The notes under the pieces were generated by a model, which was given only the letters and a program-made list of their open reading frames with translations, was not told the DNA's origin and did no database searches. The position numbers and the translations under genes are program-made. From Patescibacteria group bacterium (GTDB taxonomy: Bacteria; Patescibacteriota; Patescibacteriia; Patescibacteriales; WJLG01), in contig JAQUPS010000007.1 of assembly GCA_028716485.1 (NCBI GenBank), positions 1 to 63,343 on the forward strand: a DNA stretch of 63,343 nucleotides, written 5' to 3'. This document shows positions 2,691 through 56,000 of this stretch, piece by piece. Positions within the stretch are counted from its first letter, which is position 1; each line of letters starts with the position of its first letter.

Positions 2691-2816
2691 TAGAAATCCT
2701 GAATCCTAAACTCGAAACAAATCCAAATGTTCAAAATTAGAAATTCAAAACGTTTTGAATTTCGTGCTTCGAATTTCGAATTTGTTTAGGATTTAGAGTT
2801 TCGGGTTTCGGATTTC
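2691..2816. repeat. Heptamer-arm hairpin (GAAATCC/CGAAATT type)
   Basis: The perfect palindrome ATTCAAAACGTTTTGAAT (2743-2760) is flanked by imperfectly complementary tandem units. The right arm encodes the methyltransferase C-terminus. Confidence 0.6.
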
Positions 2817-3599
2817 AAACATCTTTTTCATCCCTGGAATTTTCGTTATTAAAGAATAAATATTATCAATCAATCTTACCGCTGGATTACTCCGCATCCT
2901 GTCTAATGCTGCTGGATTTACGGACACGACGCTTTCCCTGAATAAATCGGCCAAGGGTAAATTATTATTGCCGCAAACAGCGATAAAATATAATGGTTTG
3001 GCGGATGCTCCGCCGGCTGGCGGAGAAAAAAGTATATTGCCGGTATTACCGGCTTTAATCAAGCTGGCAAGGCCGTTTATTTGTTCCAGAATAAAAATAT
3101 TTTTAAAATATTTTTTCAATACTGCTTCGAATTCGCCGCGAGTGAACTCGCGCAAGTGATAAGGATTCTTTTGGCCGAATACTTCGCGATTGGGTGTGGA
3201 AACCAAAAAAAATCCTTGCGCATTTAAAACCCGGGCGATTTCCGCCAGATACTTTTCCGCGTTATTTAAATGTTCGATGGTTTCGAAAGAAACAACCAGA
3301 TCAAACGATTTATCCGCTTCGGCGATATTTTCGGCATCCCCTGCTTTAAATTCCAGATTAGCGGCGTGGTAATCTTGCTTAGCCATCGCCACGGCCTCCG
3401 GACTTTTATCAACCGCCGTAACTTTTGCCGCTCCCGCTTCGGCTAATATTTTTGATCCATAGCCGGAACCGCAAGCAATATCCAAAATCTTTTTTCCTGC
3501 CGCCGCCTGCGCTGCCAATCGATAACGAACCAGATGCTCGTCGTAAATTATATTCGCCTTGTTCTCTTTATTTAAAACTAATCTTTCGTCAAAAGGCAT
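2793..3599 (-). CDS. Class I SAM-dependent methyltransferase
   Basis: 268 aa with SAM motif I ILDIACGSGYGS and LVVSFETIEH. The last codons (EIRNPKL) are encoded by a repeat arm. Confidence 0.85.
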   Translation of the reverse strand: MPFDERLVLNKENKANIIYDEHLVRYRLAAQAAAGKKILDIACGSGYGSKILAEAGAAKVTAVDKSPEAVAMAKQDYHAANLEFKAGDAENIAEADKSFDLVVSFETIEHLNNAEKYLAEIARVLNAQGFFLVSTPNREVFGQKNPYHLREFTRGEFEAVLKKYFKNIFILEQINGLASLIKAGNTGNILFSPPAGGASAKPLYFIAVCGNNNLPLADLFRESVVSVNPAALDRMRSNPAVRLIDNIYSLITKIPGMKKMFEIRNPKL

Positions 3600-3610
3600 A
3601 AATCATATAT

Positions 3611-3664
3611 CAGGTAACATGTAGCATGTCCATGAAAAACCTGTTACTTGTTACTTGATACCTG
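3611..3664. repeat. Heptamer-arm hairpin (GTAACAT/CAGGTAAC family)
   Basis: Arms are caggtaacatgtagcatgt and ctgttacttgttacttgatacctg. It fills the spacer 3600-3671. Confidence 0.65.
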
Positions 3665-3671
3665 CCGCATG

Positions 3672-4700
3672 TTATTTTCCGCTCGAACTGCCGACAGTTC
3701 CCGCCGCGCCGCTGCCAGCCGTGGAAGTTCCGGACTCGCTGGCGCCCTTAACCGATCCGGAATCGATATTAGCAATAATTTTTCCCACCTGATCCAGCAT
3801 ATCCTTGGCTCCGGAAAAATCTTTAATATCAAAAGATTGAGTCGCCTTATCCAAAGTGGTATTGATATTTTCGCTCGCGCTAACCGTGGAAGAAGCCACG
3901 TGAGCCACCGCTGAACCGGGGCCGCTGCTGGAGGAAAGACTTTGCGGCGCGCCTAAAGCGGAAGTGGCTCTGCCAATGCCGACATTATCTTTCGAACCGG
4001 TGTTGGGATCATAAAATTGCAATCCTTTACTGTCTTTGCCTGATTCGACGCCGTAGACTTTGCCGCTGGCGTCTTTTTGGATATCGCCGATACCGACCTT
4101 GGCATTATCATCGCCGGCCGCCAGATTGCTGCTGGTGTTATTAACCGCCGATCCGGACGAGTTAAGAGCTAAATTTTCTTGCCGCATTTGATTGATTTCC
4201 GAATATCTTTCTTTTACCGTATTTATTTCCTGCTTGAAATTTTGCGCCAGCTGTTCCGCCTTCTTCTGATTTCCCGCAACATTGAAATTCGGGTCGGATA
4301 ATACCTCGGTTATTTCCATCGCGTGGATGCTGGCCAGCTTCATATCCAATTTCGCTTTATCCTCCTGATTGAAAGTCATCGCCAGCTGAATTTTTTCTTT
4401 CCAAACTTTGGCGATATACAAAGTGTCGCCTGGCTTGGAATTCTTAGCCGCCAGCGCGCCGAAGCTGCCGCCGGTCAAGATGATCATCAGGCAGATAACG
4501 GCCCAGGCAGTAGAGGGCAAAAAGGAAAAAAAGTTTTTAAAATCACAGGCCATCGCTTCGAACAGGCTGACTTTGACTTCTTGACCCACGGAATTGGAAA
4601 TTTGCGCCAACAAAAGATCCCGGGTTTCCTGTTTCCAGGAAGACTCGGGTTTAACATCTTTCAAAATATTCAGCTTAGCGATCAAATCTTTATCATTCAT
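3672..4700 (-). CDS. Single-pass membrane protein, putative anti-sigma factor (DUF5667-like)
   Basis: Lies directly downstream of the ECF sigma gene. It has an N-terminal cytoplasmic segment, one TM helix (AWAVICLMIILTGGSFGALAA) and a coiled, S/G-rich exterior. ATG at 4698-4700 (MNDKDLIAKL) is preferred; a GTG at 4733 is the alternative start. Confidence 0.6.
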   Translation of the reverse strand: MNDKDLIAKLNILKDVKPESSWKQETRDLLLAQISNSVGQEVKVSLFEAMACDFKNFFSFLPSTAWAVICLMIILTGGSFGALAAKNSKPGDTLYIAKVWKEKIQLAMTFNQEDKAKLDMKLASIHAMEITEVLSDPNFNVAGNQKKAEQLAQNFKQEINTVKERYSEINQMRQENLALNSSGSAVNNTSSNLAAGDDNAKVGIGDIQKDASGKVYGVESGKDSKGLQFYDPNTGSKDNVGIGRATSALGAPQSLSSSSGPGSAVAHVASSTVSASENINTTLDKATQSFDIKDFSGAKDMLDQVGKIIANIDSGSVKGASESGTSTAGSGAAGTVGSSSGK

Positions 4701-4809
4701 ATGGTTTATTCCGATAAACTCTTGGACTGTCACGATGCCGCTAAATGATGGTTCCTCTACACTATAATATACGTAAAAGAAAGCAAAACGTTACAGTTGA
4801 CAAAACCTC

Positions 4810-5376: not shown

Positions 5377-5662
5377 TCGATAAATCAGTTAAACAAAAAA
5401 TCAAGTGCTTACCGCACCATTATTTATTTAAGAGTATAACACAGAAAACCGCTATAAATCAATATGATGCCCGAAATCAAAAAAATATAAACAAATAATC
5501 CGGCCCGCGGGAAAGCAATATTTTGCGTTCCCGGGATTTGAACGGATAAATAATCCGTTCCTACGGGATAGAGCAAAAAGATAACAGCTTGCCCCGCATA
5601 GCTTTAGCGAAGCGGGGCAATATCTTGCGTTGAAACTTCAGGGGTGCGGTAAAGAAAAATAT

Positions 5663-5821
5663 GGGACTGTCGCCGAATGCTCTTTCTGGCAGAATTTTCA
5701 TAATTTTGAGGAAATTTATTTCAAAATTTTTCAGGTAATACGGTTGTATCAGCTGAAAAATTTTCAAATAAATTTACCAAAATTTGAGAATTATGACGAA
5801 AACGGCATTCGGCGACAGTCC
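5663..5821. repeat. 159-bp long palindrome, MITE-like
   Basis: GGGACTGTCGCCGAATGC (5663-5680) is the exact reverse complement of 5804-5821. The AT-rich interior arms are also largely complementary. Confidence 0.7.
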
Positions 5822-5860
5822 CTAACCATCAAAGACTTGGCGCGCCAGGCAAACAAATGC

Positions 5861-5889
5861 TTGAATTTTTTCAACAGTAGGTATATAAT
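5861..5889 (+). promoter_or_regulatory. Sigma-70-like promoter TTGAAT-17-TATAAT
   Basis: TTGAAT at 5861-5866, 17-nt spacer, TATAAT at 5884-5889. It points at the HTH gene starting at 6169. Confidence 0.6.
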
Positions 5890-5906
5890 TCATCTCACCA
5901 AACAAC

Positions 5907-5932
5907 TTTAGTACATTATATCGTGGACAATA
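5907..5932. promoter_or_regulatory. Operator-like site 1 (degenerate palindrome)
   Basis: tttagtacat-tatatc-gtggacaata matches site 3 at 21 of 26 positions. It lies just downstream of the -10 box. Confidence 0.45.
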
Positions 5933-6000
5933 GAATGCAAAAATTGATAAATCTAAATAAACATGTTTAAATATGCCAATAAAACATCAAAATATTTACT

Positions 6001-6025
6001 TTTAGTCCAATCTATTGTGGACTTA
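6001..6025. promoter_or_regulatory. Operator-like site 2
   Basis: AGTCCA (6004-6009), 8-nt spacer, TGGACT (6018-6023). Confidence 0.45.
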
Positions 6026-6063
6026 TCTTGTATTTTTATTATATACAAGCTAATTTAATATAC

Positions 6064-6089
6064 TTTAGTCCACAATATCGTGGACTAAA
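6064..6089. promoter_or_regulatory. Operator-like site 3 (perfect palindrome)
   Basis: TTTAGTCCAC-aatatc-GTGGACTAAA, perfect 10-bp arms, about 80 nt upstream of ATG 6169. Confidence 0.55.
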
Positions 6090-6168
6090 GTCAACCATTT
6101 TAATATTTTTTGAACGCAAAACGTTACGTTCCTACCATTTATATCTCCTGACTTCTTCTTTAATCTTT

Positions 6169-6672
6169 ATGTCTGATTTTTATCAAATACTTAAACGCGA
6201 GATTGAGCCGAATAATAGTGCTAAAACTGCATCGGCGAGGCATAATAAACGTTTTAGTGTTGAAAAACAGCCTGTGGACAACTTAATATTAGAAGGGGAT
6301 TTGCCTTCCGGAGAAAATATCAAATCAATGCCCAGGGTGATAAAAAAAAGACTGGCCAATTCAAAAAAAGGAGGTAAATCGACCGCCAGAAACATTCACC
6401 GAAAAAAAACAAAAGATGATTCGGATTTTTTATCCCTTGAACCGGCCAATCCGATCTGGCTGACCATGGCGGAAACCGCCAAGCTGGGCGGCGTGCAAAA
6501 ACGCACCATCAAACGGGCGCTAAGATCGGGATTCCTTAAATACCGTATCATCGAGAGCCGTTATCAGGTTGATCTGCGCTCAGCGCTCTTGTTCCTTTTT
6601 TCCCGGAAAAAACTCTGGAACAAGCTGAACGAATCCGGCATCGGACAATATGTGGGAAAATGGAAAAATTAA
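6169..6672 (+). CDS. DNA-binding protein with C-terminal excisionase/MerR-like HTH
   Basis: ATG at 6169 (MSDFYQILKRE) is preferred over the track start at 6028, which runs through AT-rich operator DNA. The C-terminal segment WLTMAETAKLGGVQKRTIKRALRSGFLKYRI resembles HTH_17/Xis-type domains. One of only two plus-strand CDS called; the other is the low-confidence small ORF at 7767-7898. Confidence 0.6.
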   Translation: MSDFYQILKREIEPNNSAKTASARHNKRFSVEKQPVDNLILEGDLPSGENIKSMPRVIKKRLANSKKGGKSTARNIHRKKTKDDSDFLSLEPANPIWLTMAETAKLGGVQKRTIKRALRSGFLKYRIIESRYQVDLRSALLFLFSRKKLWNKLNESGIGQYVGKWKN

Positions 6673-6930
6673 TCGGAGATTTTAAATTGGAAATTAGAAA
6701 TTTGGATTATTTATTACTGCGAAATTTTTATTATCAAGCGAAGCGAGCGATGATAAATACCTCGTCCGCTTATAGGCGAGGACGCCTTTTGGAAAAAAGG
6801 GTGCGGGGCTCTGCCCTGAGATTGATACCATTTATTGCGCGACAAAACGGCCATACCGATTAAATTTAATATTTAGGGGGTGTGATTTGCTTACACCTAA
6901 TCTCAAATCTCTAATTTACAATCTCAATCA

Positions 6931-6967
6931 AAAAAAATACCCCGCTTTATGGCGGGATATTTTTTTC
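6931..6967. terminator. Bidirectional intrinsic terminator between the HTH gene and hup
   Basis: CCCGC (6941-6945), loop tttatg, GCGGG (6952-6956), with an A-run before and a T-run after. Confidence 0.65.
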
Positions 6968-6984
6968 TAAAACTATATTCTTAA

Positions 6985-7630: not shown

Positions 7631-7659
7631 TTGACATTAATTGAAATAAATGGTAAAAT
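7631..7659 (+). promoter_or_regulatory. Sigma-70-like promoter TTGACA-17-TAAAAT with TG extension
   Basis: TTGACA at 7631-7636, 17-nt spacer ending in TGG, TAAAAT at 7654-7659. Confidence 0.6.
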
Positions 7660-7766
7660 TTATTTTCATGATTTTTAATATATTAATCAGAGCTATCCGT
7701 TTTCCACAGCTTAACAATTTGATAAATAATTTTTTGCTCTTTTTCCACTTAACAGAAAGGGTTTCT

Positions 7767-11009: not shown

Positions 11010-11090
11010 TTAGGGCTTAGGGCTTAGGGCTTAGGGCTTAGGCGGTCGGAATAAAAAAATCCTTTTGCCTTGCGCCTAACGCCCAGAGCC
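11010..11090. repeat. Heptamer-arm hairpin (TTAGGGC x4)
   Basis: TTAGGGC tandem x4 (11010-11037) plus ttaggcg, partly complementary to cgcctaacgccc (11072-11083). Confidence 0.7.
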
Positions 11091-11884: not shown

Positions 11885-11892
11885 AGATAAAT

Positions 11893-11956
11893 GAAATTAG
11901 AAATTAAAAATTAGAAATTGTTCAAAACAAATTTCCAATTTCCAATTTCAAATTTC
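11893..11956. repeat. Heptamer-arm hairpin (GAAATTA family)
   Basis: gaaattagaaattaaaaattagaaatt faces aaatttccaatttccaatttcaaatttc. Confidence 0.7.
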
Positions 11957-14058: not shown

Positions 14059-14134
14059 AAAATTGAAATTAGAGATTAGAAATTAGGAATTTAAAAAATA
14101 TTCAAATATCTAATTTCAAATTTCCAATTTCAAT
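14059..14134. repeat. Heptamer-arm hairpin (GAAATTA family)
   Basis: aaattgaaattagagattagaaattaggaattt faces aaatatctaatttcaaatttccaatttcaat. It overlaps the scpA stop. Confidence 0.7.
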
Positions 14135-18882: not shown

Positions 18883-19374
18883 TTACTTTCGCTTTAATTC
18901 TTCAAAATCAAGATGAGAAAAACCTATAATGGCAGCTAATTCTTTCTCGAAAGTACTGAAAAATTCGGGCAACATGGCCGCCGGATTATTTGATTCCAAA
19001 TTTTCCAGAAAAAATTTCAGCAGATTGAATATTTCGGCGCTACCGCCGATTTCGCTTTCGCGGGTCATTTTTTCCACTAAGGACAGGGCGAGGCCGGCAA
19101 GCTTTAATTTTTCCAGATCATTTTTTATTTCCGGGAAAAAATTTTCTCCGGCCGCCGTGCCGACATAATTTATATCCTTGCCAACGACGACCATCAGACG
19201 CGACAAAGTCAGGGATTCGATATGGCCGGACAATTTTGATTTTACTTTTTTCGCGCCACGCGCGATTAATTCCAGCTTGCCTTTATCTTCGCTATAACAA
19301 ACAATCCGGGAATCGTTTTCCCGGAAATCAAGGCGATTTAAAATTATGGCGCGAGTGTTGAAAGTGGATTCCAT
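18883..19374 (-). CDS. recO: DNA repair protein RecO, short form
   Basis: N-terminal OB-fold AIILNRLDFRENDSRIVCYSEDKGKLELIARGAKK. At 163 aa it lacks the usual C-terminal zinc-finger region. Confidence 0.7.
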   Translation of the reverse strand: MESTFNTRAIILNRLDFRENDSRIVCYSEDKGKLELIARGAKKVKSKLSGHIESLTLSRLMVVVGKDINYVGTAAGENFFPEIKNDLEKLKLAGLALSLVEKMTRESEIGGSAEIFNLLKFFLENLESNNPAAMLPEFFSTFEKELAAIIGFSHLDFEELKRK

Positions 19375-19444
19375 AAAATGCTAAATGCTAAATGATGAAT
19401 GCTAAATTTTTGTAACAATTTAGCATTTAGCATTTAGCATTTTA
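19375..19444. repeat. Heptamer-arm hairpin (GCTAAAT family)
   Basis: aaaatgctaaatgctaaatgatgaatgctaaat faces tttagcatttagcatttagcatttt. The right arm encodes the RuvX C-terminus. Confidence 0.8.
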
Positions 19445-19824
19445 TCTAGGTATTCTTGCAACAAGATCATCGCTGCCACTTCGTCGCGTGAGGCCTTCAA
19501 ATTCCCGCCCGGCAGGGCGTCCGCCGCTTTGCTGGAAAGACGCTCGTCGATAAAAATTATTTCCATATCCGGCAGGCGATTTTTCAGTTCTGCCGCGAAT
19601 TCCAAAAAATCTTTCGCTAAGCCTTCCTTGATACCGCGCATCTTTATCGGCTCTCCGATTACCAAAACATCGGCGTTTTCTTCCCGCGCCGTTTCCGCCA
19701 AATCGTGCGCGCCGCTTACCGTCTTGAACGGCGTGGCCAGCCTGGTTTCGCTGTCGCCCAGGCTCAAGCCGATGCGCTTGGAGCCCCAATCAACGCCGAG
19801 ATAAATTTTCAACTCTTTATCCAT
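19420..19824 (-). CDS. ruvX: Holliday junction resolvase-like protein RuvX/YqgF
   Basis: Contains YLGVDWGSKRIGLSLGD. ATG at 19824 is preferred over the TTG at 19836. The last codons (MLNAKC) are encoded by a GCTAAAT repeat arm. Confidence 0.88.
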   Translation of the reverse strand: MDKELKIYLGVDWGSKRIGLSLGDSETRLATPFKTVSGAHDLAETAREENADVLVIGEPIKMRGIKEGLAKDFLEFAAELKNRLPDMEIIFIDERLSSKAADALPGGNLKASRDEVAAMILLQEYLDKMLNAKC

Positions 19825-22330: not shown

Positions 22331-22337
22331 AGAAAAT

Positions 22338-22467
22338 AAATTATAAATTATAAATAATATTGGCAAAAAATGTCTTAACCAAATTAATTATTTTTACATA
22401 GGAATTATACTATAAATTCGCCAATAATAAAAGCCCTCAAAGGAGCTTTATTTATAATTTATAATTT
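22338..22467. repeat. Perfect 20-bp inverted repeat of AAATTAT heptamers, 90-nt spacer
   Basis: aaattataaattataaataa (22338-22357) is the exact reverse complement of 22448-22467. Confidence 0.8.
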
Positions 22468-22485
22468 GTAATTTATAATTGATTT

Positions 22486-23747: not shown

Positions 23748-23790
23748 TTTCGTATTTCGTATTTCGTATTTCGTATTTCGTATTCCTTCG
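23748..23790. repeat. TCGTATT tandem heptamer x5
   Basis: tttcgtatttcgtatttcgtatttcgtatttcgtattcc, between rplO and secY. Confidence 0.85.
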
Positions 23791-24260: not shown

Positions 24261-24351
24261 CGGAGCATGAGAACATAAGAGCAGGTTGCGATTTTTTATG
24301 CTTTCACGTTTCAATGCTCTATGCTCTTATGCTTTAATGCTCTTGTGCTCT
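24261..24351. repeat. Hairpin (GAGCAT/GAACAT family)
   Basis: cggagcatgagaacataagagcagg faces caatgctctatgctcttatgctttaatgctc. It fills the slot where rpmD would be and encodes the S5 C-terminus. Confidence 0.7.
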
Positions 24352-25386: not shown

Positions 25387-25470
25387 CATGTATCAAGTAA
25401 CATGTAACATTCTGTTCTTCACAAATTTTTTCCTAGAAAATGTTACTTGCTACCTGTTACTTGCTACCTG
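25387..25470. repeat. Heptamer-arm hairpin (GTAACAT family)
   Basis: catgtatcaagtaacatgtaacat faces atgttacttgctacctgttacttgctacctg. Confidence 0.7.
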
Positions 25471-25474
25471 TTTA

Positions 25475-26022: not shown

Positions 26023-26115
26023 AATTCGTATTTCGTATTTCGTATTTCGTATTTCGGAACCCCTATATTTTTTAAAAATATACGAGATACAAAATACGAA
26101 ATACCAAATACGAAT
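26023..26115. repeat. Heptamer-arm hairpin (TCGTATT family), ~33-bp stem
   Basis: The left arm 26023-26056 pairs with the right arm 26081-26115 at about 30 of 33 positions. It fills the rpsH-rplF spacer. Confidence 0.85.
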
Positions 26116-26117
26116 TA

Positions 26118-26542: not shown

Positions 26543-26620
26543 AATGCTAAATTATGAATGCTAAATGCTAAATTATCAATTACTTTCAATTTAGCATTCA
26601 TCATTTAGCATTTAGCATTT
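26543..26620. repeat. Heptamer-arm hairpin (GCTAAAT family)
   Basis: aatgctaaattatgaatgctaaatgctaaatt faces tttagcattcatcatttagcatttagcattt. Confidence 0.8.
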
Positions 26621-28257: not shown

Positions 28258-28297
28258 ATTCGTATTTCGTATTTGGTATTTCGTATTTCGTATACGG
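28258..28297. repeat. TCGTATT tandem heptamer x5
   Basis: attcgtatttcgtatttggtatttcgtatttcgtatacgg, between rpsQ and rplN. Confidence 0.85.
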
Positions 28298-28848: not shown

Positions 28849-28939
28849 GTATCAAGTATCATATAACATCTCTTTCTCACCGGCTTATTTCCATTGAAAT
28901 GCTACCTGTTACTTGTTACCTGCTATCTGTTTTACTCGT
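28849..28939. repeat. Heptamer-arm hairpin (GTAACAT family)
   Basis: catgaaacatgtatcaagtatcatataacat faces atgctacctgttacttgttacctgctatctg. It overlaps the rplP stop. Confidence 0.65.
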
Positions 28940-29358: not shown

Positions 29359-29420
29359 TCAGGTAACAAGTAGCATGTAGCATAATTTTTAAAAAATATT
29401 ACCTGCTACTTGTTACCTGA
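29359..29420. repeat. Hairpin with perfect 17-bp stem (CAGGTAAC family)
   Basis: TCAGGTAACAAGTAGCA (29359-29375) is the exact reverse complement of 29404-29420. Confidence 0.9.
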
Positions 29421-30131: not shown

Positions 30132-30324
30132 TTTCGTATTTGGTATTTCGTATCTCGTATTTCGTATATTCTTACGAAATTTAAACTAACAAGTAAATTA
30201 TTAATTATTATTTTTATATCAATTTCAGAAATCTTTTTGTTATTTTATCTTCGGCGTCTTTTTTTGATATTCTTCTCTCTTAACCCGATATACGAAATAC
30301 GATATACCAAATACGAGATACGAA
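30132..30324. repeat. TCGTATT-family inverted arms separated by 117 nt
   Basis: The left arm is 30132-30168 and the right arm 30286-30324 (cgatatacgaaatacgatataccaaatacgagatacgaa). It fills the rplV-rpsC spacer. Confidence 0.8.
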
Positions 30325-30867: not shown

Positions 30868-30885
30868 ATTATCATCATGAAAGCA

Positions 30886-30975
30886 TTGAAACATGGGAAC
30901 ATGAGAACAAGACGTGGAACGTTTTTCCGCAACCTGTTCCTATGCTCTTATGTTTTTATGCTCTCATGTTTCTAT
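30886..30975. repeat. Hairpin (GAGCAT/GAACAT family)
   Basis: catgaaagcattgaaacatgggaacatgagaacaag faces ctgttcctatgctcttatgtttttatgctctcatgtttc. Confidence 0.7.
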
Positions 30976-31322
30976 TTTTTCTTAGCCTCGGGAGCTTTGG
31001 CTGCCGGAGCCGCCGCCGGAGCCGGTTTTCCCGCTTCCGCCGCTTCCATTTCTTCGGCCTTCGCCATCTTGCCGCCGTGAGCGATAAATTTCTTGGTTAA
31101 AGAAAATTCTCCCAAACGATGGCCGACCATATTTTCCACTATATAAACCGGAATATGCTGTTTGCCGTTATGCACGCCAATCGTAAACCCGACCATTTCC
31201 GGAGTAATAGTGCAAGCTCGATCCCAAACCTTAATGACGGTTTTGTCTCCGGGCTTGAGATTTTTGAGCTTCTTGATGATTCTGGGATTTACGTATGGGC
31301 CTTTTTTTAAACTTCTGGACAT
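30972..31322 (-). CDS. rpsS: 30S ribosomal protein S19 with Ala/Pro/Lys C-terminal tail
   Basis: Contains [11 protein letters not shown] and [13 protein letters not shown]. The tail is [22 protein letters not shown]. Confidence 0.96.
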
Positions 31323-31326: not shown

Positions 31327-31422
31327 TTTTCGTATTTCGTATCTCGTATTTCGTATTTCGGACATGATATCTCATTCTAAAAAATATACGAGATACCAAA
31401 TACGAAATACGAAATACGAATT
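31327..31422. repeat. Heptamer-arm hairpin (TCGTATT family), >30-bp stem
   Basis: ttttcgtatttcgtatctcgtatttcgtatttcgg faces tatacgagataccaaatacgaaatacgaaatacgaatt. It fills the rplB-rpsS spacer. Confidence 0.85.
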
Positions 31423-32266: not shown

Positions 32267-32305
32267 TTTTTCGTATTTAGTATTTCGTATCTCGTATTTC
32301 GTATA
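32267..32305. repeat. TCGTATT tandem heptamer x5 (single arm)
   Basis: ttttcgtatttagtatttcgtatctcgtatttcgtata, between rplW and rplB. Confidence 0.8.
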
Positions 32306-34941: not shown

Positions 34942-35014
34942 AGCATGAGAGCATGGAAACATGAGAGCATGGAAACATATTCAATGTTCCAATGCTCCTC
35001 TGCTCAACTGCTCC
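34942..35014. repeat. Hairpin (CATGAGAG/CATGGAAA 8-mer units)
   Basis: agcatgagagcatggaaacatgagagcatggaaacat faces aatgttccaatgctcctctgctcaactgctcc. Confidence 0.7.
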
Positions 35015-37120: not shown

Positions 37121-37203
37121 CAATTGCTACATTGCTAAATTATTACATTGTCAAAATTTTTCTTCGTTGCGTAACAATGTAGCAATGAAACAATGTGACA
37201 ATT
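37121..37203. repeat. Heptamer-arm hairpin (CATTGCT family)
   Basis: caattgctacattgctaaattattacattgtca faces gtaacaatgtagcaatgaaacaatgtgacaatt. Confidence 0.75.
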
Positions 37204-39300: not shown

Positions 39301-39415
39301 TGAAAAATTTTATAATTTTTAAATTTTTAAAGAATTTTTAATGTCTAATTTTTAAAAATTTAAAAATTGGGATTTCTTTAAAAATTATAAAATTAAAAAT
39401 TTAAAAATTCTATTC
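39301..39415. repeat. ~110-bp AT-rich palindromic repeat (TTTTTAAATTTTTAAA...AAAAATTGGG...CTTTAAAAATTATAAAATT family), copy 1
   Basis: Shares long blocks with 41664-41772 and 55866-56000. Confidence 0.75.
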
Positions 39416-39923: not shown

Positions 39924-40008
39924 ATGTAGTATGCAGTATGTAGTATGCAGTATGGCGGTATGTGGTTATGCTTTTTGCATGCCCCATACTACATACTACT
40001 TACTACAT
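39924..40008. repeat. Heptamer-arm hairpin (GTAGTAT/GCAGTAT)
   Basis: atgtagtatgcagtatgtagtatgcagtatgg faces ccccatactacatactacttactacat. Confidence 0.75.
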
Positions 40009-40470: not shown

Positions 40471-40563
40471 GAATGATAGATGATAAATGATTAATGATGA
40501 GTTAAATTTATGACAAACTGTTAAAACAGCTAATTTATCATTTATCATCAATCATTTATCATT
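40471..40563. repeat. Heptamer-arm hairpin (GATGATA/AATGATT)
   Basis: gaatgatagatgataaatgattaatgatgag faces ctaatttatcatttatcatcaatcatttatcatt, in the rpsL leader. Confidence 0.75.
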
Positions 40564-41962: not shown

Positions 41963-41970
41963 AAATATTT

Positions 41971-42067
41971 CATGTAACATGTAGCAAATAACATGTAACA
42001 TTTTAAATTAATTTATTATACTTTATTGCATGTTACATGATACCTGTTACATGCTTCATACTACCTG
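41971..42067. repeat. Heptamer-arm hairpin (GTAACAT family)
   Basis: catgtaacatgtagcaaataacatgtaacat faces gcatgttacatgatacctgttacatgcttcatactacctg. Confidence 0.75.
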
Positions 42068-46065: not shown

Positions 46066-46110
46066 AAATTATTTATTATAAATTTATTTTGGGAGATACC
46101 GAAGAAAAAT

Positions 46111-46148
46111 CATTGCTACATTGTTTCATTGCTAAATTGTTATATTGC
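46111..46148. repeat. CATTGCT-family single arm
   Basis: cattgctacattgtttcattgctaaattgttatattgc, related to 37121-37203. Confidence 0.65.
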
Positions 46149-46152
46149 TTTT

Positions 46153-50210: not shown

Positions 50211-50363
50211 GAAGTTATGATGAGTAATAATGGCTATCTGTCAAATTTATTTAATATTAGAAGAAAAATGGCATTATTAGCTTGCAATGCGTTAAGATTT
50301 TATCACTTGACAACAAGTTATCCACAGAAAGCACGTAACACATATCACGTAACATCATACACT

Positions 50364-50553
50364 TTGTCATCCCGAGCGCCTCGCGAGGGATCTATTTGGT
50401 TCCGCCGTCAGTCTCGCGAAGCGGACTGCGGTGAAATCAAAACGCAGCAGTCCCCTGACGGTAGACTGCTGCGGAACTAAAAAATTCGGTTATACAAAAT
50501 TTTAATTCCTGCAAAATAGATCCCTCTCCGCCAGGGGCGGATCGGGATGACAA
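50364..50553. repeat. Composite MITE-like unit bounded by inverted GTCATCCCGA...GGGATCTATTT copies
   Basis: 50364-50399 and the reverse complement of 50508-50553 share TTGTCATCCCGA and GAGGGATCTATTT ends. The interior holds the hairpin GCAGCAGTC/GACTGCTGC. The unit sits between ACGTAACA-type arms at 50332-50362 and 50566-50590. Confidence 0.65.
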
Positions 50554-50569
50554 AAAAGATAAAATGCCG

Positions 50570-52000
50570 TTACGTGTTACATGTTACGAGATTTTTTATT
50601 TCTTCTCTGGCGACTTCTCGGTCATCCCAAGGAATTTTTTCGCCATTGGCCATCATCATCAATTGCTCGCTCCCCTTGCCGCTGATTAAAACCAAATCCC
50701 CTTCTTCAGCGATGGAAATCGCTTTGCGGATTGCTTCGCGGCGGTCGGGAATTTTAAATAAATCAAAATTTACTTTTTTACCGGCAGTTTCCGCGCCAGC
50801 GCCAATTTGTTCGATAATCAAAATCGGATCATCATCATAGGGATCTTCATTAGTGATAATCACGATATCGGCGCGTTTGCCAGCCAGCAAACCGAGTTTT
50901 GGCCGCCTCGCCACATCGCGACCGCCGCCGGCAGAACCCAGGACGTTGATGATGCGGTTATGCGGAAATTTTTCAATCGTATCATAAAGCTTGCCGAGCG
51001 AATTGGGTTCAAAAGCATAATCAACGATAACCGTGAATGGCTGGCCTTTATCGATTTTTTCCATCCGGCCGGCAATGCCTTTGACGCTGTTCAGCCCGGC
51101 AATGATTTTTTCAATATTTTTTTCAGCTAAGCGCGCCACGCAAGCGGCGGCCATGGCGTTGGCGGCATTAAATTCACCCAATAAAGATAATTGGATTTTT
51201 TTGCCAAACGCCTGGAAAGAAACGCCTTGTTCTTCGGTTTTGATTTCACTGTATTTTTCAATCTGCAAATTTTCCGGTAAGTTTTCTGCAAGTAAATCGA
51301 TTTTATCTCTGGTCGTGAAGCCGATTTTTTCTTCCGCCCAAAAAGATAAAAAGTAAGCGGCATTTTCGTCATCAATGTTGGCGATGATCGTTTTCTTGAT
51401 GCGATTCAGGTCAAGTTTTTTCAAACCGCTCTTGGATCTGCATACCTTAAATTTGTCGTCCACATATTGAAGGCTGCAGTTTTTCAAATGCTCGAATAAT
51501 TTTCCTTTAGCTTTTTTATAATTTTCAAATCCGCCGTGCGATTCGATATGTTCGGGAAAAAGTCCGGTAAAAATCAGCCAATCGTAATTGATAAATTTGT
51601 GTCGGAATTGGCGGATGCCTTCGGAAGTCGTTTCGACAATCGCGATCTGACAGCCGTTCTTCGCCATTTTCGCCAGCAAGCCTTGCAGAAAAAATCTTCC
51701 TACCATCGTCATTCTTTTATCATTCAACCATTCTTTTTCGCCATCATTAAAAATCGCGGTGGAAGTAAGGCCGACTTTAAACCCGCACTCTTTCAATGTC
51801 CGCAACAATAAATACGAAGTTGTCGTTTTACCAATGGTGCCAGTCACGCCTATAACAATCATTTTCTCGGCCGGAAAACTGTAATATAAAGCCGCCGACC
51901 AGGATAATAAATAATGGTAAGCGGGCACCGCGGCCTTGAATAATTTTTTGGGGATTAATTTTTTGAGGAAAGAAAATAATTTATCCATATATTCATACAA
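50570..52000 (-). CDS. murE: Mur ligase family protein, likely UDP-MurNAc-tripeptide synthetase (MurE-like)
   Basis: P-loop is VIGVTGTIGKTTTS, with central and C-terminal Mur ligase motifs (DYAFEPNS, GKGSEQ). Which amino acid it adds cannot be told from the sequence. Confidence 0.8.
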   Translation of the reverse strand: MYEYMDKLFSFLKKLIPKKLFKAAVPAYHYLLSWSAALYYSFPAEKMIVIGVTGTIGKTTTSYLLLRTLKECGFKVGLTSTAIFNDGEKEWLNDKRMTMVGRFFLQGLLAKMAKNGCQIAIVETTSEGIRQFRHKFINYDWLIFTGLFPEHIESHGGFENYKKAKGKLFEHLKNCSLQYVDDKFKVCRSKSGLKKLDLNRIKKTIIANIDDENAAYFLSFWAEEKIGFTTRDKIDLLAENLPENLQIEKYSEIKTEEQGVSFQAFGKKIQLSLLGEFNAANAMAAACVARLAEKNIEKIIAGLNSVKGIAGRMEKIDKGQPFTVIVDYAFEPNSLGKLYDTIEKFPHNRIINVLGSAGGGRDVARRPKLGLLAGKRADIVIITNEDPYDDDPILIIEQIGAGAETAGKKVNFDLFKIPDRREAIRKAISIAEEGDLVLISGKGSEQLMMMANGEKIPWDDREVAREEIKNLVTCNT

Positions 52001-52067: not shown

Positions 52068-52328
52068 TTAAGAAAAATTTCGGACGACGAATTTCTCGAT
52101 AACCTTGATTATTTCCAGATCTTCTTTGGAAACGTCACAGAACGGGCACTTAACGATTATTTTCACCATTTCTTCCGCTTCAGCTTCGGCCGCGCCTCCC
52201 TTAAGAATATTCCTTACACATTTCCCAACCTCCAATGTGGCCGCCGCACGAAGAGATTCTTCTTCAATCCTGGAAATTGCGCTTATGAATAAAACAACTT
52301 CCGCTTTATCAATCGACTTTCTCCGCAT
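52068..52328 (-). CDS. Hypothetical protein
   Basis: 86-aa ORF followed by a strong terminator hairpin. No motif recognised. Confidence 0.5.
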   Translation of the reverse strand: MRRKSIDKAEVVLFISAISRIEEESLRAAATLEVGKCVRNILKGGAAEAEAEEMVKIIVKCPFCDVSKEDLEIIKVIEKFVVRNFS

Positions 52329-52659: not shown

Positions 52660-53700
52660 TTAAAATTTTGCCAATCTTCTTGCGGTTCGCAAAATTCGAT
52701 AGATGCCATAATTGATTCTATTATAAACTACGTCGAAAGTTCCGGGATAATTTATTTCTTGGCCGCCGAAGCCGCGCTTAAAACGGGTCACGCCCGGCCA
52801 TTTTTTCTCATCGATGCCGAAAAAATCATAAAATTTATAGCCGCCGGCTTTGGCGCGCCTGATCAATTCCCATTGCAATAAATATGGCGCCATCACTTCG
52901 CGATTTTCGTCAGAGGAAGCGCCAAAAAGATAAGTGGCGGTATCGCCAAAAAAAGCGAAAATGCCTGCGCAAAGAATCTTATCTTCATATTTATCTCCGC
53001 TTTCGCCAAGGCTATGGCGGACGAAGGCAAAAAATAATTTAAAATTTTCCGGCGCGGTTTGCAGAAGTTTTTCATAATAATCTTTATCGTGCGAAGTGAA
53101 CCCGTCGCGGCCGGAAGTTTTCTTCATTAAATTCCAAAATTCTTCAAAACTATTTCCCGGAGCTTCTGATATTTTCACTCCTTTCTTTTCCGCCAAGCGG
53201 ATATTATATCTCGTTTTCTGATGCATCGCCGATAACAATTCTTCCTCGCTTTTAGACAAATCAAGAACGATTGTTTTTGAAGGTTGAATATCAAGGGATT
53301 TTCGTATTTCGTATTTCGTATTTCGTATTTCGATTTGTTTCGGCTCGAACCGCAGAAAAATTGCATCCTCCTTATCTGCAATCTTTTTTATTTCATCAAG
53401 AAAAAATTGAAGATTGAAAATTGAAGATTGAAAATTTATTATCGGTCCTCTCGGGCAATAAAAATAATTTATTCCGCCTACGCCAAGGCTTCGGCGGACG
53501 CGATCCCCCGGCAGGGATTTTTTCACCAACGTGGCGGCGGCGATAAGTTCGCCGTTTTCTTCCACGCCTATCCTTATTACTTTGCCCTCGACTTTTTCCT
53601 GGAATTCTCCCCATTCCCACGATTGCAAAAATTCGGCGTGCTCTTGCGCGCTGACAAAATCGTTTAATTTATTCTTATTTTTTATTTCAATTAATTGCAT
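52660..53700 (-). CDS. FemAB-family peptidoglycan interpeptide-bridge aminoacyltransferase (FemX/MurM-like)
   Basis: Contains FLQSWEWGEFQ, YCPRGP and LLQWELIRRAKAGGYKFYDFFGI. Holds in-frame repeat-derived segments (see findings). Confidence 0.85.
   Translation of the reverse strand: MQLIEIKNKNKLNDFVSAQEHAEFLQSWEWGEFQEKVEGKVIRIGVEENGELIAAATLVKKSLPGDRVRRSLGVGGINYFYCPRGPIINFQSSIFNLQFFLDEIKKIADKEDAIFLRFEPKQIEIRNTKYEIRKSLDIQPSKTIVLDLSKSEEELLSAMHQKTRYNIRLAEKKGVKISEAPGNSFEEFWNLMKKTSGRDGFTSHDKDYYEKLLQTAPENFKLFFAFVRHSLGESGDKYEDKILCAGIFAFFGDTATYLFGASSDENREVMAPYLLQWELIRRAKAGGYKFYDFFGIDEKKWPGVTRFKRGFGGQEINYPGTFDVVYNRINYGIYRILRTARRLAKF
52996..53021. repeat. 26-nt mini-palindrome inside the femX-like CDS, copy 1
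   Basis: TCCGCT-ttcgccaaggctat-GGCGGA encodes RHSLGESG in frame. Confidence 0.7.
53299..53336. repeat. TCGTATT heptamer x4 inside the femX-like CDS
   Basis: ttttcgtatttcgtatttcgtatttcgtatttcgattt encodes [13 protein letters not shown] in frame. Confidence 0.85.
53407..53434. repeat. 14-mer tandem (TTGAAGATTGAAAA x2) inside the femX-like CDS
   Basis: Encodes NFQSSIFNLQF in frame. Confidence 0.75.
53473..53498. repeat. 26-nt mini-palindrome inside the femX-like CDS, copy 2
   Basis: TCCGCC-tacgccaaggcttc-GGCGGA encodes RRSLGVGG in frame. Confidence 0.7.
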
Positions 53701-54278: not shown

Positions 54279-54281
54279 ATT

Positions 54282-55193
54282 TTATATTTTTAATCCGCGC
54301 AAAGCGGCAATGCGATCTTCAACAGGGGGATGAGTCATAAATAATTTTGCCATAAAGCCAACCTTGCCATCGGCGCCTTTGAGGGGCGAGATGATATAAA
54401 GGTGGGCGGTGGCGCGATTAGCAACTTCCAATTTTGCCGGATCGGCGGAAATTTTTTCCAAGGCGCTGACCAGGCCTTCGGGGTAGCGGGTCAGCAAAGC
54501 GCCGTCGGCGTCGGCCTTGAATTCGCGCTTGCGGGAAATCGCCAATTGCATCAGTGTGGCAAAAATCGGCGCTAAAATCGCCAAAACTATGGCGATAACG
54601 AGCATTATCAATTGCAATTGTCCGCCCTCGCTGTCGTTGCTGCGGCGGCGGCGTCCGCCGAAAAAAGACCAGCGCATATACCAGTCGGCCAGCAAAACCA
54701 CGACGCCGACCAAAACCGTCACGACAGTAGAAAGCAGAATATCGCGATTACCGATGTGCGAAAGCTCATGCGCGATCACGCCTTCCAATTCTGATTTTTC
54801 CAATTTGGCCAACAAGCCGCTGGTAACGGCGACAACCGCGTGCTGGGCATCGCGGCCTGTGGCAAAAGCGTTCGGGGCGCTATCTTCTATAATATATAGG
54901 CGCGGCACGGGCAAGCCGGCGGTGATGCAGAGATTTTCCACGATATGATAAAGTTCGCGCGCGCTTTCATGATCAACCTCATGGGCGTTGGACATCGCTA
55001 AAACAATCTTATCGCTCCACCAATAACTGACGAAACTGGAAATAATGCTAAAACCGACGGCGATATACAAAATCTCCGGCGCGTTCATCGCCTGGGAAAA
55101 AACCCAGCCGATGCCGATGACCGCGGCAAAAAATATGGTCATCAACAGCCAAGTTTTGCGCGCATTGGAATCAGAGTCGGTATATAAAGTCAT
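54282..55193 (-). CDS. htpX: Zinc metalloprotease HtpX (M48)
   Basis: Contains HELSHIGNRD plus TM helices. Confidence 0.93.
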   Translation of the reverse strand: MTLYTDSDSNARKTWLLMTIFFAAVIGIGWVFSQAMNAPEILYIAVGFSIISSFVSYWWSDKIVLAMSNAHEVDHESARELYHIVENLCITAGLPVPRLYIIEDSAPNAFATGRDAQHAVVAVTSGLLAKLEKSELEGVIAHELSHIGNRDILLSTVVTVLVGVVVLLADWYMRWSFFGGRRRRSNDSEGGQLQLIMLVIAIVLAILAPIFATLMQLAISRKREFKADADGALLTRYPEGLVSALEKISADPAKLEVANRATAHLYIISPLKGADGKVGFMAKLFMTHPPVEDRIAALRGLKI

Positions 55194-55196
55194 AAC

Positions 55197-55297
55197 AAAA
55201 ATCTCAAATCACAATTTTAAATTTTAAAATAAGTCAAAAATCTTAATATTTAAATTTTTATTTTTAAATTTATTTTAAAATTTTGATTTTGGATTTT
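55197..55297. repeat. AT-rich palindromic repeat, AAATCTCAAAT family, copy 3
   Basis: aaaaatctcaaatcacaattttaaattttaaaataagtcaaaaatc..., between lemA and htpX. Confidence 0.75.
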
Positions 55298-55856
55298 AAA
55301 ATTTAACCTGCACCGGCGCTTTCTCGTCTTCGGCGATTTGGAAGAATTCATAAGCCTTGAATTTAAGCAGGCCGTTAATGACATTGGTCGGAAAAACTTG
55401 CAGCGAGGTGTTGAAGTCGCGGACATTGCCGTTGTAGAAACGGCGAGAAGCCATAATCTTGTCTTCAGTGTCGGTAAGCTCGCGCTGTAATTCCAAAAAG
55501 TTTTGGTTGGCTTTCAAATCCGGATAAGCTTCAGCCAGAGCAAAGACCGATTTCAAGGCGCCACTTAGCATATTTTCCGCTTCGCCTTTGGCGCCGGACG
55601 CTCCATCAGTGACACTCATCGCGCGATTGCGGGCATTGATGACGTTTTCCAAAGTTGTTTTTTCGTGCACGGCATAACCTTTAACCGTTTCCACTAAATT
55701 CGGGATGAGGTCATAGCGGCGCTTTAATTGGACATTGATGTCGCTCCAAGCTTCATCGGTGCGATTTTTGCCGCGGATCAAGCCGTTGTACATGGCGATT
55801 ATCCAGAGCGCCAAAAGAACGATGACGATGAGGATAATCCAAAGTGTCGCGTTCAT
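55296..55856 (-). CDS. lemA: LemA family protein
   Basis: N-terminal TM helix and DEAWSDINVQLKRRYDLIPNLVETVKGY. Confidence 0.9.
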   Translation of the reverse strand: MNATLWIILIVIVLLALWIIAMYNGLIRGKNRTDEAWSDINVQLKRRYDLIPNLVETVKGYAVHEKTTLENVINARNRAMSVTDGASGAKGEAENMLSGALKSVFALAEAYPDLKANQNFLELQRELTDTEDKIMASRRFYNGNVRDFNTSLQVFPTNVINGLLKFKAYEFFQIAEDEKAPVQVKF

Positions 55857-55865
55857 AGATTTGTT

Positions 55866-56000
55866 GAAATTTTTAATTTTGTAATTTTTAAATTTTTAAA
55901 AAAATTTTAATGAATAATTTTTAAACCGATAAACTGCTGATTTAAAAATTAAAAATTATGATTTCTTTAAAAATTATGAAATTAAAAATTAAAAAATTAT
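55866..56000. repeat. ~110-bp AT-rich palindromic repeat, copy 3
   Basis: Its left block is identical to copy 2. Its right block atgatttctttaaaaattatgaaattaaaaatt matches copy 1. Confidence 0.8.

Follow-up and report, generated by a model that had tools for sequence, protein, structure and literature searches.

Tandem heptamer repeats, about half of them paired as hairpins, turn over rapidly in the gene spacers of a Falkowbacteria-type Patescibacterium

The stretch of DNA analysed here, called the window throughout, comprises the 63,343 nucleotides (nt) of contig JAQUPS010000007.1 from the Patescibacteria group bacterium assembly GCA_028716485.1, and our subject is the set of short tandem repeats, commonly of period 7 or 8 and often arranged as the two arms of a hairpin, that occupy its gene spacers. 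The window has a GC content of about 44% and a GC skew that is negative throughout and monotonic, and almost all of its genes lie on the minus strand; sequences are described below in mRNA sense, which is this strand. A str-S10-spc ribosomal-protein cluster occupies 22.4-40.5 kb and rpoC/rpoB lie at 42-50 kb; the remaining genes were named by Pfam. RpsC is 90% identical in amino acids (aa) to its counterpart in a Candidatus Falkowbacteria metagenome-assembled genome (MAG), here L001, and its further matches are other Falkowbacteria and Patescibacteria. Judged by protein sequence, the genome belongs to the Patescibacteria (candidate phyla radiation, CPR) and is of Falkowbacteria type. The public contig L145, which comes from a separate assembly, shows 100% identity to the window over 2384 nt that include four repeat-bearing spacers. 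This identity, and the presence of the same architecture in many independent MAGs, excludes an assembly artefact.

Dozens of arrays with period 7 or 8 were reported by Tandem Repeats Finder (TRF), almost all of them at gene boundaries. When a strict array is defined as at least three copies with at most one mismatch per 14, the window holds 17 with period 7, and periods 5, 6 and 8-11 are not represented. The intergenic DNA (9.6 kb) was set against 100 dinucleotide-preserving shuffles and against the coding DNA (51 kb). Thirteen strict period-7 arrays are intergenic, against a shuffle mean of 0.04 (maximum 1), and three are coding; for long inverted repeats the intergenic count is 20, against a mean of 0.48 (maximum 3), and the coding count is one. 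The excess over dinucleotide shuffles is thus about 300-fold for arrays and about 40-fold for hairpins. Intergenic DNA matches itself at a frequency of 0.363 at lag 7, 0.345 at lag 14 and 0.314 at lag 21, over a baseline of about 0.29, whereas coding DNA carries a period-3 signal only and has a lag-7 match of 0.253.

Each of 35 stretches was also folded and compared with 200 shuffles, and 21 proved more stable than all of their shuffled counterparts. Within the main fold set, 17 of 20 spacers beat every one of the 200 shuffles, with z-scores from -3.0 to -10.2, and further strong folds were obtained at 2684-2820 (z -6.2), 30127-30324 (z -6.5), 50320-50600 (z -9.8) and 55862-56000 (z -8.2). Stem free energies (dG) range from -24 to -50 kcal/mol. 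Among the 26 high-scoring inverted repeats of the window, 19 are built from arms with a period of 7 or 8; across 22 loci, 82 such periodic hairpins were collected. More than 10 different units are involved, all of which repeat every 7 or 8 nt in roughly 4-5 copies, and an inverted partner arm accompanies about half of the arrays.

An earlier note on this DNA, made from its letters alone, had described hairpins with tandem-repeat arms filling the spacers, and had named as tests a comparison of intergenic with coding DNA, including period-7 autocorrelation, and folding against shuffled controls. The description held up in all of these analyses, and the outcome that would have spoken against it, folding no better than in shuffled controls, was not observed. 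The pairing reported for three stems was likewise reproduced, with 34 nt paired at 91% between 26023-26056 and 26083-26116, 17 consecutive pairs within 29359-29420, and 21 of 22 positions paired between 22336-22357 and 22448-22469. Several details need amendment. The named units do occur at the named coordinates, except that the unit at 2691 is not GAAATTA, and several families have period 8, as the GAGCAT/GAACAT and CATTGCT families do. Among the listed sites, the hairpins at 18748 (z -1.4), 3611 (z -2.1) and 37121 (z -2.1) are weak, and the arrays at 23748, 28258, 32267 and 46111 are one-sided, having no partner arm and folding no better than shuffles (z -1.8 to +1.95). A greater periodicity of the 3' arm than of the 5' arm, suggested by the hairpin at 26023, was inconsistent across hairpins and was abandoned.

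Orthologous S10-spc spacers were mapped in the 22 loci. The window and its relatives L001 and L002 share about 78-80% DNA identity over aligned, mostly coding stretches, and in all three the median S10-spc spacer measures 92-108 nt and the spacers are full of such hairpins. In the more distant Falkowbacteria L003, L059, L004, L006 and L007 the spacers are mostly 1-35 nt long, and hairpin-rich spacers appear again in L078-L080, which belong to another Patescibacteria group. No strict period-7 array was found in the Uhrbacteria or Omnitrophota loci examined. Even the closest genomes differ in which spacers are occupied and by what. For example, the rplE-rpsN spacer is 29 nt long and has no hairpin in the window, whereas it holds a 108-nt TCGTATC/AATACGA hairpin in L001 and a 104-nt GTAACA-type hairpin in L002; between rplB and rpsS the families are TCGTATT, GCGAAT and GTAGCA, respectively. 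Since occupancy and families differ among genomes that are about 80% identical, the elements must be gained, lost and replaced faster than the genes diverge, and their turnover is indeed much faster than the divergence of the flanking genes. It had been proposed that position is kept while the unit varies, to be examined in orthologous spacers. The relatives do have the same architecture, and the proposal describes the rpsL 5' region and the femAB sites discussed below, but conservation of position is limited, occupancy being patchy among close relatives.

The stems can be asked whether they bear the marks of selection on RNA. Selection on the sense transcript should yield more G·U than A·C oppositions, since an A·C opposition becomes a wobble pair only when the antisense strand is read. 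In ungapped arm alignments of the 82 periodic hairpins, G·U occurs 113 times and A·C 141 times on the sense strand (p = 0.09), which is the wrong direction for RNA selection. Without a G·U excess, the complementarity seems to have arisen recently by duplication or templating of the DNA, with unbiased decay thereafter, and the hairpins look DNA-generated rather than like a conserved RNA device. An Rfam scan returned only two tRNAs at gathering score and matched the heptamer hairpins to no family; permissive matches involved only eukaryotic microRNA-hairpin models, at 24-37 bits against cut-offs of 62-195. The heptamer hairpins are not intrinsic terminators either. None was flagged by a simple terminator scan, and by eye their stems are AT-rich and lack a T-run, although the promoter and terminator scans gave counts near those of shuffles (42 versus 32 and 38 versus 29). 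Separate hairpins with a GC stem and a T-run lie at 22430-22449 and 39425-39451, and in the spacers after tuf, 5' of rpsL and after 52068-52328 (folds read by eye).

Traces that we read as copying, and others that we read as in-place slippage or concerted evolution, are both visible. The arrays 5' of rpsC (the 3' arm of 30133..30324) and 5' of rplB (32269-32304) differ by one mismatch over about 42 nt and have the same variant units in the same order (alignment read by eye). TCGTATT hairpins have the loop-proximal motifs CTCGTATATTTTT and TCCGAAATACG in common with an L001 copy at a non-orthologous spacer (by eye), and a degenerate GTAACA-family tail, CTTGATACATGTTTCATGAAT, is common to window and L002 copies at different spacers (by eye), the tail in question being that of the 3' arm of the rplP-rpmC hairpin (28849..28931). 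Cross-position BLAST matches support both of these observations. In the rpsL 5' region, the window and the relative L149 keep a promoter-like stretch and a small CCCGAT..TCGGG hairpin, with a mean column identity of 83%. Between these conserved flanks, the window has GATAAAT/ATTTATC arms and L149 has TTAGTTAA/TTAACTAA arms. Downstream of fusA, all units of the 5' arm read CATTG in the window and TATTG in L001, and those of the 3' arm read CAATG and CAATA; RNAalifold scored one compensatory pair in this orthologous pair, and more can be seen by eye. Family-wide covariation analysis was given up, as each family has few members and can be aligned in more than one repeat register. In the rpoB-rpoC region of L149, both arms of an ATTGTTA-family pair, the family of the one-sided array at 46110..46149 of the window, are present with a whole gene and other palindromic elements between them.

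Arrays also occur within coding sequence. In many Patescibacteria, femAB homologues have arrays at the same two positions but with different units, which are read in frame as 7-residue-periodic peptides such as NYKLQITNYK and NEELRIKNEE (confirmed in DNA for the L001 genome). Seven is not a multiple of three, and the gain or loss of one unit in either array would therefore shift the femAB reading frame, so that these arrays could act as contingency (phase-variable) sites. We considered the two arrays as arms of a single hairpin and rejected this, their mutual pairing being weak by eye.

The placement of the elements relative to genes is strongly patterned. Among the 19 periodic hairpins of the window, 14 end at most 12 nt before the next start codon and 12 begin at most 12 nt after, or inside, the upstream stop codon; the hairpin at 26023..26116, for example, begins 1 nt past the rpsH stop and ends 2 nt before the rplF start. 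The edge-to-edge filling described in the earlier note is thus true of about half of the 19 and not of the others. In spacers that exceed their hairpin in length, the hairpin adjoins the start in five cases versus three. Arms run into the 3' end of the upstream gene in five cases, and arms encode the RuvX C-terminus with its stop and a methyltransferase C-terminus; overlap with the downstream coding sequence never exceeds 2 nt, the start codon being left just outside the stem. It had further been proposed that the hairpins leave no room for a Shine-Dalgarno (SD) sequence. However, SD scarcity is not specific to hairpins, since an SD-like 4-mer is present in only 8 of 64 genes of the window and hairpin-free spacers lack one too. 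In 44 of 63 genes a T immediately precedes the start codon, the 10 nt upstream are A/T-rich, and translation initiation appears, from these sequence features, to be SD-independent. In the window as in its close relatives, every one-sided AAATACG array lies in sense orientation, 0-9 nt before an ATG, and has 4-5 units, and across loci the A-rich strand of one-sided arrays is the sense strand in 56 cases versus 18, a count in which some contigs are duplicated. One strand holds all genes and is aligned with the replication skew, and contributions of transcription and replication to this orientation bias are inseparable. These features suit an SD-less organism whose initiation regions are A-rich and free of structure, and they also suit a stem that couples stop to start.

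The arms of CATG-containing families affect annotation as well. Their 3' arms make in-frame ATGs 5' of the likely true starts of rpmC, rplV, rpsJ and rpmB (28834-28848, 30868-30894, 34939-34962 and 41963-42001), at which naive calling of open reading frames (ORFs) adds 5-13 spurious N-terminal residues (MFHEY.., MFQCFHDDN..).

We put at roughly 55% the probability that the elements are palindromic heptamer repeats with rapid turnover at the DNA level, transcribed passively as stem-loops; any effect on expression, whether through coupling, processing or stability, may be secondary and is unproven. They would be lineage-specific, multi-family simple-sequence repeats of heptamers, sometimes octamers, with about 4-5 units, existing singly or as inverted pairs, and an inverted pair would constitute an imperfect palindrome of 60-200 nt. 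The comparisons show that they arise, are copied from spacer to spacer and are replaced at the DNA level. As to mechanism, slippage of units would homogenise an array, templating or gene conversion between arms would preserve complementarity, and copying between loci would spread families and occasionally swap the family at one site. Since long runs of genes in one direction account for nearly all genes here, co-transcription of the elements within polycistronic mRNA is probable, and they would fold there as long stem-loops. Their tolerance could be explained by SD-less initiation, which would leave spacers carrying little sequence information, and by the self-folding nature of the insert, which would hold the upstream stop and the downstream start physically close while invading only dispensable upstream 3' ends. 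An architecture that is independent of sequence and is built from more than 10 units suggests a mechanism that generates it and not a site of binding.

Several observations weigh against this interpretation. The proximity of most hairpins to the next start codon fits function better than neutrality, and so do their preference for the start in longer spacers, the sense bias of one-sided arrays and the presence of two unrelated hairpins at one site of the rpsL 5' untranslated region (UTR) in two species. The wobble test would also be compatible with selection for structure that is re-created by DNA-level templating. A scan of the 30 non-ribosomal ORFs of the window revealed neither a transposase nor a REP-associated tyrosine transposase (RAYT; REP, repetitive extragenic palindromic). 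Target-site duplications and terminal inverted repeats were likewise not definable: in a comparison by eye of occupied with short orthologous spacers, all but one site were too diverged, and none yielded a duplication. Moreover, RpsC scans of genomes and metagenomes yielded no strain-level relative, identities being at most 90% aa, and exact-protein matches led either to L145, which is the same genome (100%), or to other species, L146-L149 (at most 83% nt). With the closest relative at about 83% nt, no single insertion, excision or slippage event has been observed.

Some of these points are what would be expected if the stems were intercistronic RNA devices maintained by selection, in which structure matters and sequence does not. 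We regard this as possible but on balance doubtful. In a coupling version, a stem reaching from stop to start would mask the next start until the ribosome finishing the upstream gene melts the base of the stem, with stop and start held together. Alternatively, the stems might serve RNase III-type processing, with which their structure is compatible, or mRNA stability; for this, the intergenic hairpins of phage T7 early mRNA offer a comparison. Such roles would account for the great stability of the stems (z to -10), for their close spacing from starts and stops, for start codons left outside the stem with overlap confined to upstream 3' ends, for the retention of a hairpin in the rpsL 5' UTR despite a change of family, and for the compensatory arm changes downstream of fusA, all in an SD-poor organism. 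However, G·U pairs are not in excess on the sense strand, occupancy is patchy even in close relatives, and related lineages manage with spacers of 1-30 nt. In addition, the hairpins of rpsJ and rpsL lie in 5' UTRs past terminator-like stems (folds read by eye), where no upstream ribosome could open them, and one-sided arrays and arrays within coding sequence use the same units without forming a hairpin. A further reading, in which structure-dependent but sequence-independent stems hand the terminating ribosome to the next start or mark processing sites and a hairpin is maintained at given sites through the swapping of interchangeable heptamer cassettes by a copying mechanism, seems to us fairly unlikely. 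If it were true, the rpsL family swap and the two-arm change at fusA would be two snapshots of the cassette mechanism.

As has been proposed for the TAACTGA repeats of Beggiatoaceae, the single-stranded A-rich array before a start might instead be a site for ribosomal protein S1, a cold-shock protein or another RNA-binding regulator, with the 5' arm serving as a modulating anti-sequence. In favour are the uniform orientation of the one-sided AAATACG arrays, their position directly before ATG, their uniform length of 4-5 units and the general sense bias of unpaired A-rich arrays; in addition, shuffles fold as well as one-sided arrays or better, and a parallel exists in the Beggiatoaceae TAACTGA repeats (PMC4679880). 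We nevertheless consider this explanation unlikely, as more than 10 unrelated units would require many binding specificities or none, and arrays of this kind are also found within genes and at their 3' ends. The orientation bias itself is ambiguous with all genes on one strand and a monotonic GC skew, and the count of 56 versus 18 includes duplicates of the same contigs.

That the elements are classical miniature transposable elements, similar to REP doublets forming hairpins (REPINs) or to transposable elements of the miniature inverted-repeat kind (MITEs) and moved in trans by a transposase encoded elsewhere, we judge distinctly unlikely. Inverted-doublet hairpins accompanied by decayed singlets do mirror the REPIN picture (PMC3116915), families are dispersed and common to genomes at non-orthologous sites, and the cassette swap between conserved rpsL flanks and the nested insertions could be taken as mobility. 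The arms are direct tandem repeats, however, and not REP-type palindromes; neither a target-site duplication nor a terminal inverted repeat is definable, the scanned window ORFs include no RAYT or transposase, and the many families have only 2-7 copies each in 63 kb. The fixed in-frame femAB sites, at which only the unit changes, fit in-place turnover better than repeated insertion. Finally, chance low-complexity sequence, assembly artefact or ordinary intrinsic termination is hardly credible, for although the spacers are AT-rich and the hairpins at 18748, 3611 and 37121 are only marginally above shuffles, these explanations are refuted by the 40-fold to 300-fold excess, the identical independent contig, the recurrence in many MAGs and the terminator scan.

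The earlier note had held that this organisation matches no nameable repeat class. It is indeed distinct from REP elements and bacterial interspersed mosaic elements (BIMEs), from CRISPR arrays and from enterobacterial repetitive intergenic consensus (ERIC) sequences, but heptamer simple-sequence repeats are a class that can be named, and the window has their head-to-tail 7-nt copies above chance and their intergenic over-representation. Tandem heptamers are described as the commonest long simple-sequence repeat in bacteria, with polymerase slippage as the proposed origin (Mrazek 2007, as cited in PMC4679880 and PMC4692102). What is already known is therefore the heptamer simple-sequence repeat; what is new is the large number of AT-rich families, the pairing of about half of the arrays as hairpins, the saturation of spacers, the in-frame copies and the CPR host.

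The closest precedent is the convergent GGGAATC arrays of Xanthomonas. In X. campestris and X. citri, these arrays mostly have four units, are 89-93% intergenic and are transcribed, with function unknown (Rehm et al. 2015, PMC4692102), and each genome has 70-75 convergent pairs able to form stem-loops (PMC4692102). The elements of the window resemble them as tandem heptamers of about four units that are strongly intergenic, form convergent stem-loop pairs, lie mostly between co-directional genes, and vary greatly in length and sequence between close species; transcription has been demonstrated there and is only inferred here. In contrast, Xanthomonas has one G-rich unit that has been discussed as a G-quadruplex former, whereas more than 10 mostly AT-rich units without G-quadruplex potential occur here; on inspection of the units, only TTAGGGC has a G-run, of 3 nt. 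Xanthomonas arrays also lie nearer the upstream ORF (about 28 nt), whereas those of the window mostly adjoin the downstream start, saturate ribosomal-protein operons, include in-frame copies and inhabit a Patescibacterium with a small genome.

A second parallel is provided by the TAACTGA direct repeats of marine Beggiatoaceae, which lie a few nt before starts in spacers poor in ribosome-binding sites, including those of ribosomal-protein operons (MacGregor 2015, PMC4679880), and which are also present in some cyanobacteria and Bacteroidetes (PMC4679880). Both systems have 2-6 tandem heptamers a few nt 5' of starts, in ribosomal-protein operons and occasionally in ORFs, and both are biased in orientation relative to the gene. 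The pre-start arrangement is evident in the window from the hairpin-to-start distances, from the 0-9 nt that separate one-sided AAATACG arrays from the ATG, and from the rarity of SD-like sequences. Unlike the window, with its many units of which about half have an inverted partner, Beggiatoaceae have a single unit, one indirect repeat in 170 and no hairpin. The TRF output for the window contains no TAACTGA array.

Tandem heptamers of cyanobacteria, named short tandemly repeated repetitive (STRR) sequences in Calothrix, are a further comparison. Three repetitive heptanucleotides are attributed to Calothrix PCC 7601 (as cited in PMC4692102), and in Nostoc PCC 7120 several families of heptamers lie close to starts (bioRxiv 10.1101/2022.06.06.494920). 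As in the window, several families coexist in a genome, are intergenic and often near starts or promoters, and have an unresolved function. Unlike in the window, they are mainly direct arrays, with few inverted pairs in Nostoc (PMC4692102), and the filling of spacers between cistrons is not among their described features. In a REPIN, two REPs form an inverted doublet that folds as a hairpin in single-stranded DNA or mRNA; singlets look like remnants, and RAYTs move the element (Bertels and Rainey 2011, PMC3116915). The elements described here similarly include inverted doublets with a spacer, are extragenic, fall into several families per genome and show remnant-like singlets and nested arrangements. 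However, each REP is a short palindrome bound by a RAYT, whereas the arms here are direct tandem repeats with few copies per family, and one-sided arrays fold no better than shuffles; the likeness extends to extragenic, multi-copy inverted doublets and not to the REP palindrome. Nor do the arrays have the CRISPR organisation of regularly spaced, identical 25-40 nt repeats with unique spacers between them, since their units are only 7-8 nt long, adjoin one another and form inverted pairs, each at a gene boundary of its own. Rickettsia palindromic elements (RPE) are 100-150 nt long, have a defined consensus and occur between genes and in frame within them, where they add short peptides. Compared by description only, RPE resemble the present elements as small repeats found both between genes and in frame, and differ from them in that the latter are tandem heptamers.

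The elements of the window are listed in the table. The hairpin after tuf with a GC stem lies 5' of the CATGAGAG hairpin at 34942..35014 (fold read by eye), the 90-nt loop at 22336..22469 contains terminator-like and promoter-like sequences, and relatives of the hairpin at 2687..2815 are found in the rpsS-rplV and rpsE-rplO spacers of L001.

Table. Repeat elements of the window, with gene context in mRNA sense and fold scores against 200 shuffles (spacers are named by upstream and downstream gene).
Element	Coordinates	Strand	Context	Fold
TCGTATT/AATACGA hairpin, 34-nt arms, 26-nt loop	26023..26116	-	rpsH-rplF	dG -41.9, z -10.2
TCGTATT-family hairpin	31329..31420	-	rplB-rpsS	z -7.5
TCGTATT-family hairpin, 118-nt loop	30133..30324	-	rplV-rpsC	z -6.5
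One-sided (AAATACG)5 array (sense)	23748..23784	-	directly 5' of secY; orthologous array in L001	
One-sided (AAATACG)n array	28259..28293	-	directly 5' of rplN	
One-sided (AAATACG)n array	32269..32304	-	directly 5' of rplB	z +0.4
GTAACA/CAGGTAR-family hairpin	25387..25472	-	rplF-rplR	z -4.7
GTAACA-family hairpin	28849..28931	-	rplP-rpmC	z -4.0
GTAACA-family hairpin, 17 consecutive pairs	29359..29420	-	rpsC-rplP	z -7.8
GTAACAT-family hairpin	41972..42059	-	rpoC-rpmB	z -4.9
GTAACA-family hairpin (weak)	3604..3664	-	DUF5667 gene/methyltransferase gene	z -2.1; 8/200 shuffles fold equally
GCTAAAT hairpin	19373..19445	-	5' arm is RuvX C-terminus and stop; 3' arm adjoins recO-like start	z -7.6
GCTAAAT-family hairpin	26543..26619	-	rpsN-rpsH, beside rpsH start	z -5.2
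GAGCAT period-8 hairpin	24263..24342	-	5' arm within rpsE 3' end	z -3.5
GAGCAT/GAACAT period-8 hairpin	30879..30981	-	rpsS-rplV	dG -43.1, z -7.9
CATGAGAG period-8 hairpin	34942..35014	-	directly 5' of rpsJ	z -4.6
CATTGCTA period-8 hairpin	37122..37203	-	just 3' of fusA; orthologous L001 hairpin	z -2.1
GTAGTAT hairpin	39924..40008	-	adjoins rpsG start	z -7.1
GATGATA/GATAAAT hairpin	40472..40563	-	10 nt 5' of rpsL	z -5.7
TTAGGGC array, 4.7 perfect copies, with imperfect partner arm	11010..11090	-	5' of TPR gene	z -3.0
GAAATTA hairpin	11892..11950	-	adjoins tpiA start	z -6.5
GAAATTA-like hairpin	14062..14134	-	fills scpA-scpB	z -4.1
Hairpin with 41-nt period-7 arms (AAATCCG/AAACYC units)	2687..2815	-	5' arm is methyltransferase C-terminus	z -6.2
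AAATTAT arms (21/22 paired), 90-nt loop	22336..22469	-	after secY; kept in L001	z -3.7
CGTAACA heptamer arms around GC-rich palindromes	50330..50590	-	5' arm overlaps murE-like 3' end	dG -126.5, z -9.8
One-sided CATTGCTA period-8 array	46110..46149	-	rpoB-rpoC	z +1.95
Two in-frame heptamer arrays: (AAATACG)n 53300-53336, (CAATYTT)n 53403-53436	53300..53436	-	within femAB	
AT-rich palindrome, separate family	39306..39402	-	rpsG-fusA; more copies at 41664-41767 and 55868-55998	

Other palindromic and dispersed elements accompany the heptamer repeats. A GC-rich dispersed element of about 55 nt, CCCACCC..GCCGC-N11-GCGGC ACCCCTCCC-GAGA-GGGG, lies at 27443-27525 and 28587-28644, just 5' of rplE and rpsQ, with a 94%-identical copy in L071 (7962-8023). 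The L001 genome has a homologous copy in reverse orientation within its femAB orthologue (L150, about 6520-6575), inserted in frame and read as EKSPLERGGCAAQTGCV (by eye). Short GC-rich palindromes, TCCGCC..AGCCTTGGCG..GGCGGA, also occur in frame, in femAB (53476-53508 and 52987-53025) and in a 223-aa ORF (36504-36671). They are read as RRSLGVGG and RHSLGESG, are missing from most aligned femAB homologues, and resemble the in-frame palindromic elements of Rickettsia; other femAB homologues have different inserts at several sites. A palindromic element of about 150 nt with ends GTCATCCYGA...TCRGGATGAC is nested, at 50380-50560, within a heptamer hairpin's loop. Half of the element recurs in the rpoB-rpoC spacer at about 46150-46220, and full copies in L149 (2160-2320 and 3580-3730) flank an extra gene (bactofilin/DUF8173) between rpoB and rpoC. 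Two very AT-rich palindrome families (AATTTTTAAATTTT.. and AAATCTCAAATC..) are represented in several of the larger spacers, at 19827-19918, 39306-39402, 41664-41767, 46228-46331, 55198-55297 and 55868-55998. The copy between rpsG and fusA has a counterpart in the same spacer of L003, whose RpsC identity is 74%, and the AT-rich palindromes are therefore positionally older than the heptamer hairpins.

A search of viral contigs (IMG/VR) for (AAATACG)3 returned four one-sided arrays on unrelated contigs, including two giant-virus MAGs. They have 4-6 units (L151 1035-1055, L152 9071-9091, L153 3819-3839 and L154 3138-3158), and two lie just before an ATG. These are probably independent heptamer arrays, and a phage origin of the arrays, which we had considered, receives no evidence from four matches in unrelated contigs.

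Elsewhere in the window, a minus-strand ORF of 767 codons at 3-2303 continues past the edge of the window. Its GC content is 52%, compared with about 44% for the rest, its codon-usage score is strong, and it has no Pfam match. Two stretches, 5377-6984 (1.6 kb) and 7267-8070 (0.8 kb), have no convincing ORF. Long inverted repeats are present there (5663-5706/5779-5822, 44 nt at 80%, and 5981-6023/6067-6109), nothing in these stretches reaches Rfam gathering score, and a tRNA-Tyr lies nearby at 8071-8155. The rpsJ-rplC spacer at 34354-34479 is non-coding and 97-99% identical to L001 and L066, whereas the neighbouring genes are 75-85% identical. It contains a promoter-like TTGACT-17-TATCAT followed by a GACC..GGTC hairpin with a T-run, has no Rfam match, and could specify a tiny transcript or a leader or attenuator.

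Heptamer repeats are widespread and unexplained in bacteria, and this lineage represents an extreme natural case, in which many families, in paired and unpaired forms, occupy essential ribosomal-protein operons and reach into reading frames in a streamlined, SD-poor genome. The preference for 4-5 units among AT-rich repeats argues against the G-quadruplex rationale given for Xanthomonas. The family swap at rpsL and the concerted change of two arms at fusA provide handles on how palindromes are generated. On a practical level, the arms mislead gene callers, both through spurious upstream in-frame ATGs and through altered gene 3' ends. If the stems do affect coupling or processing, they would have a bearing on how Patescibacteria organise translation.

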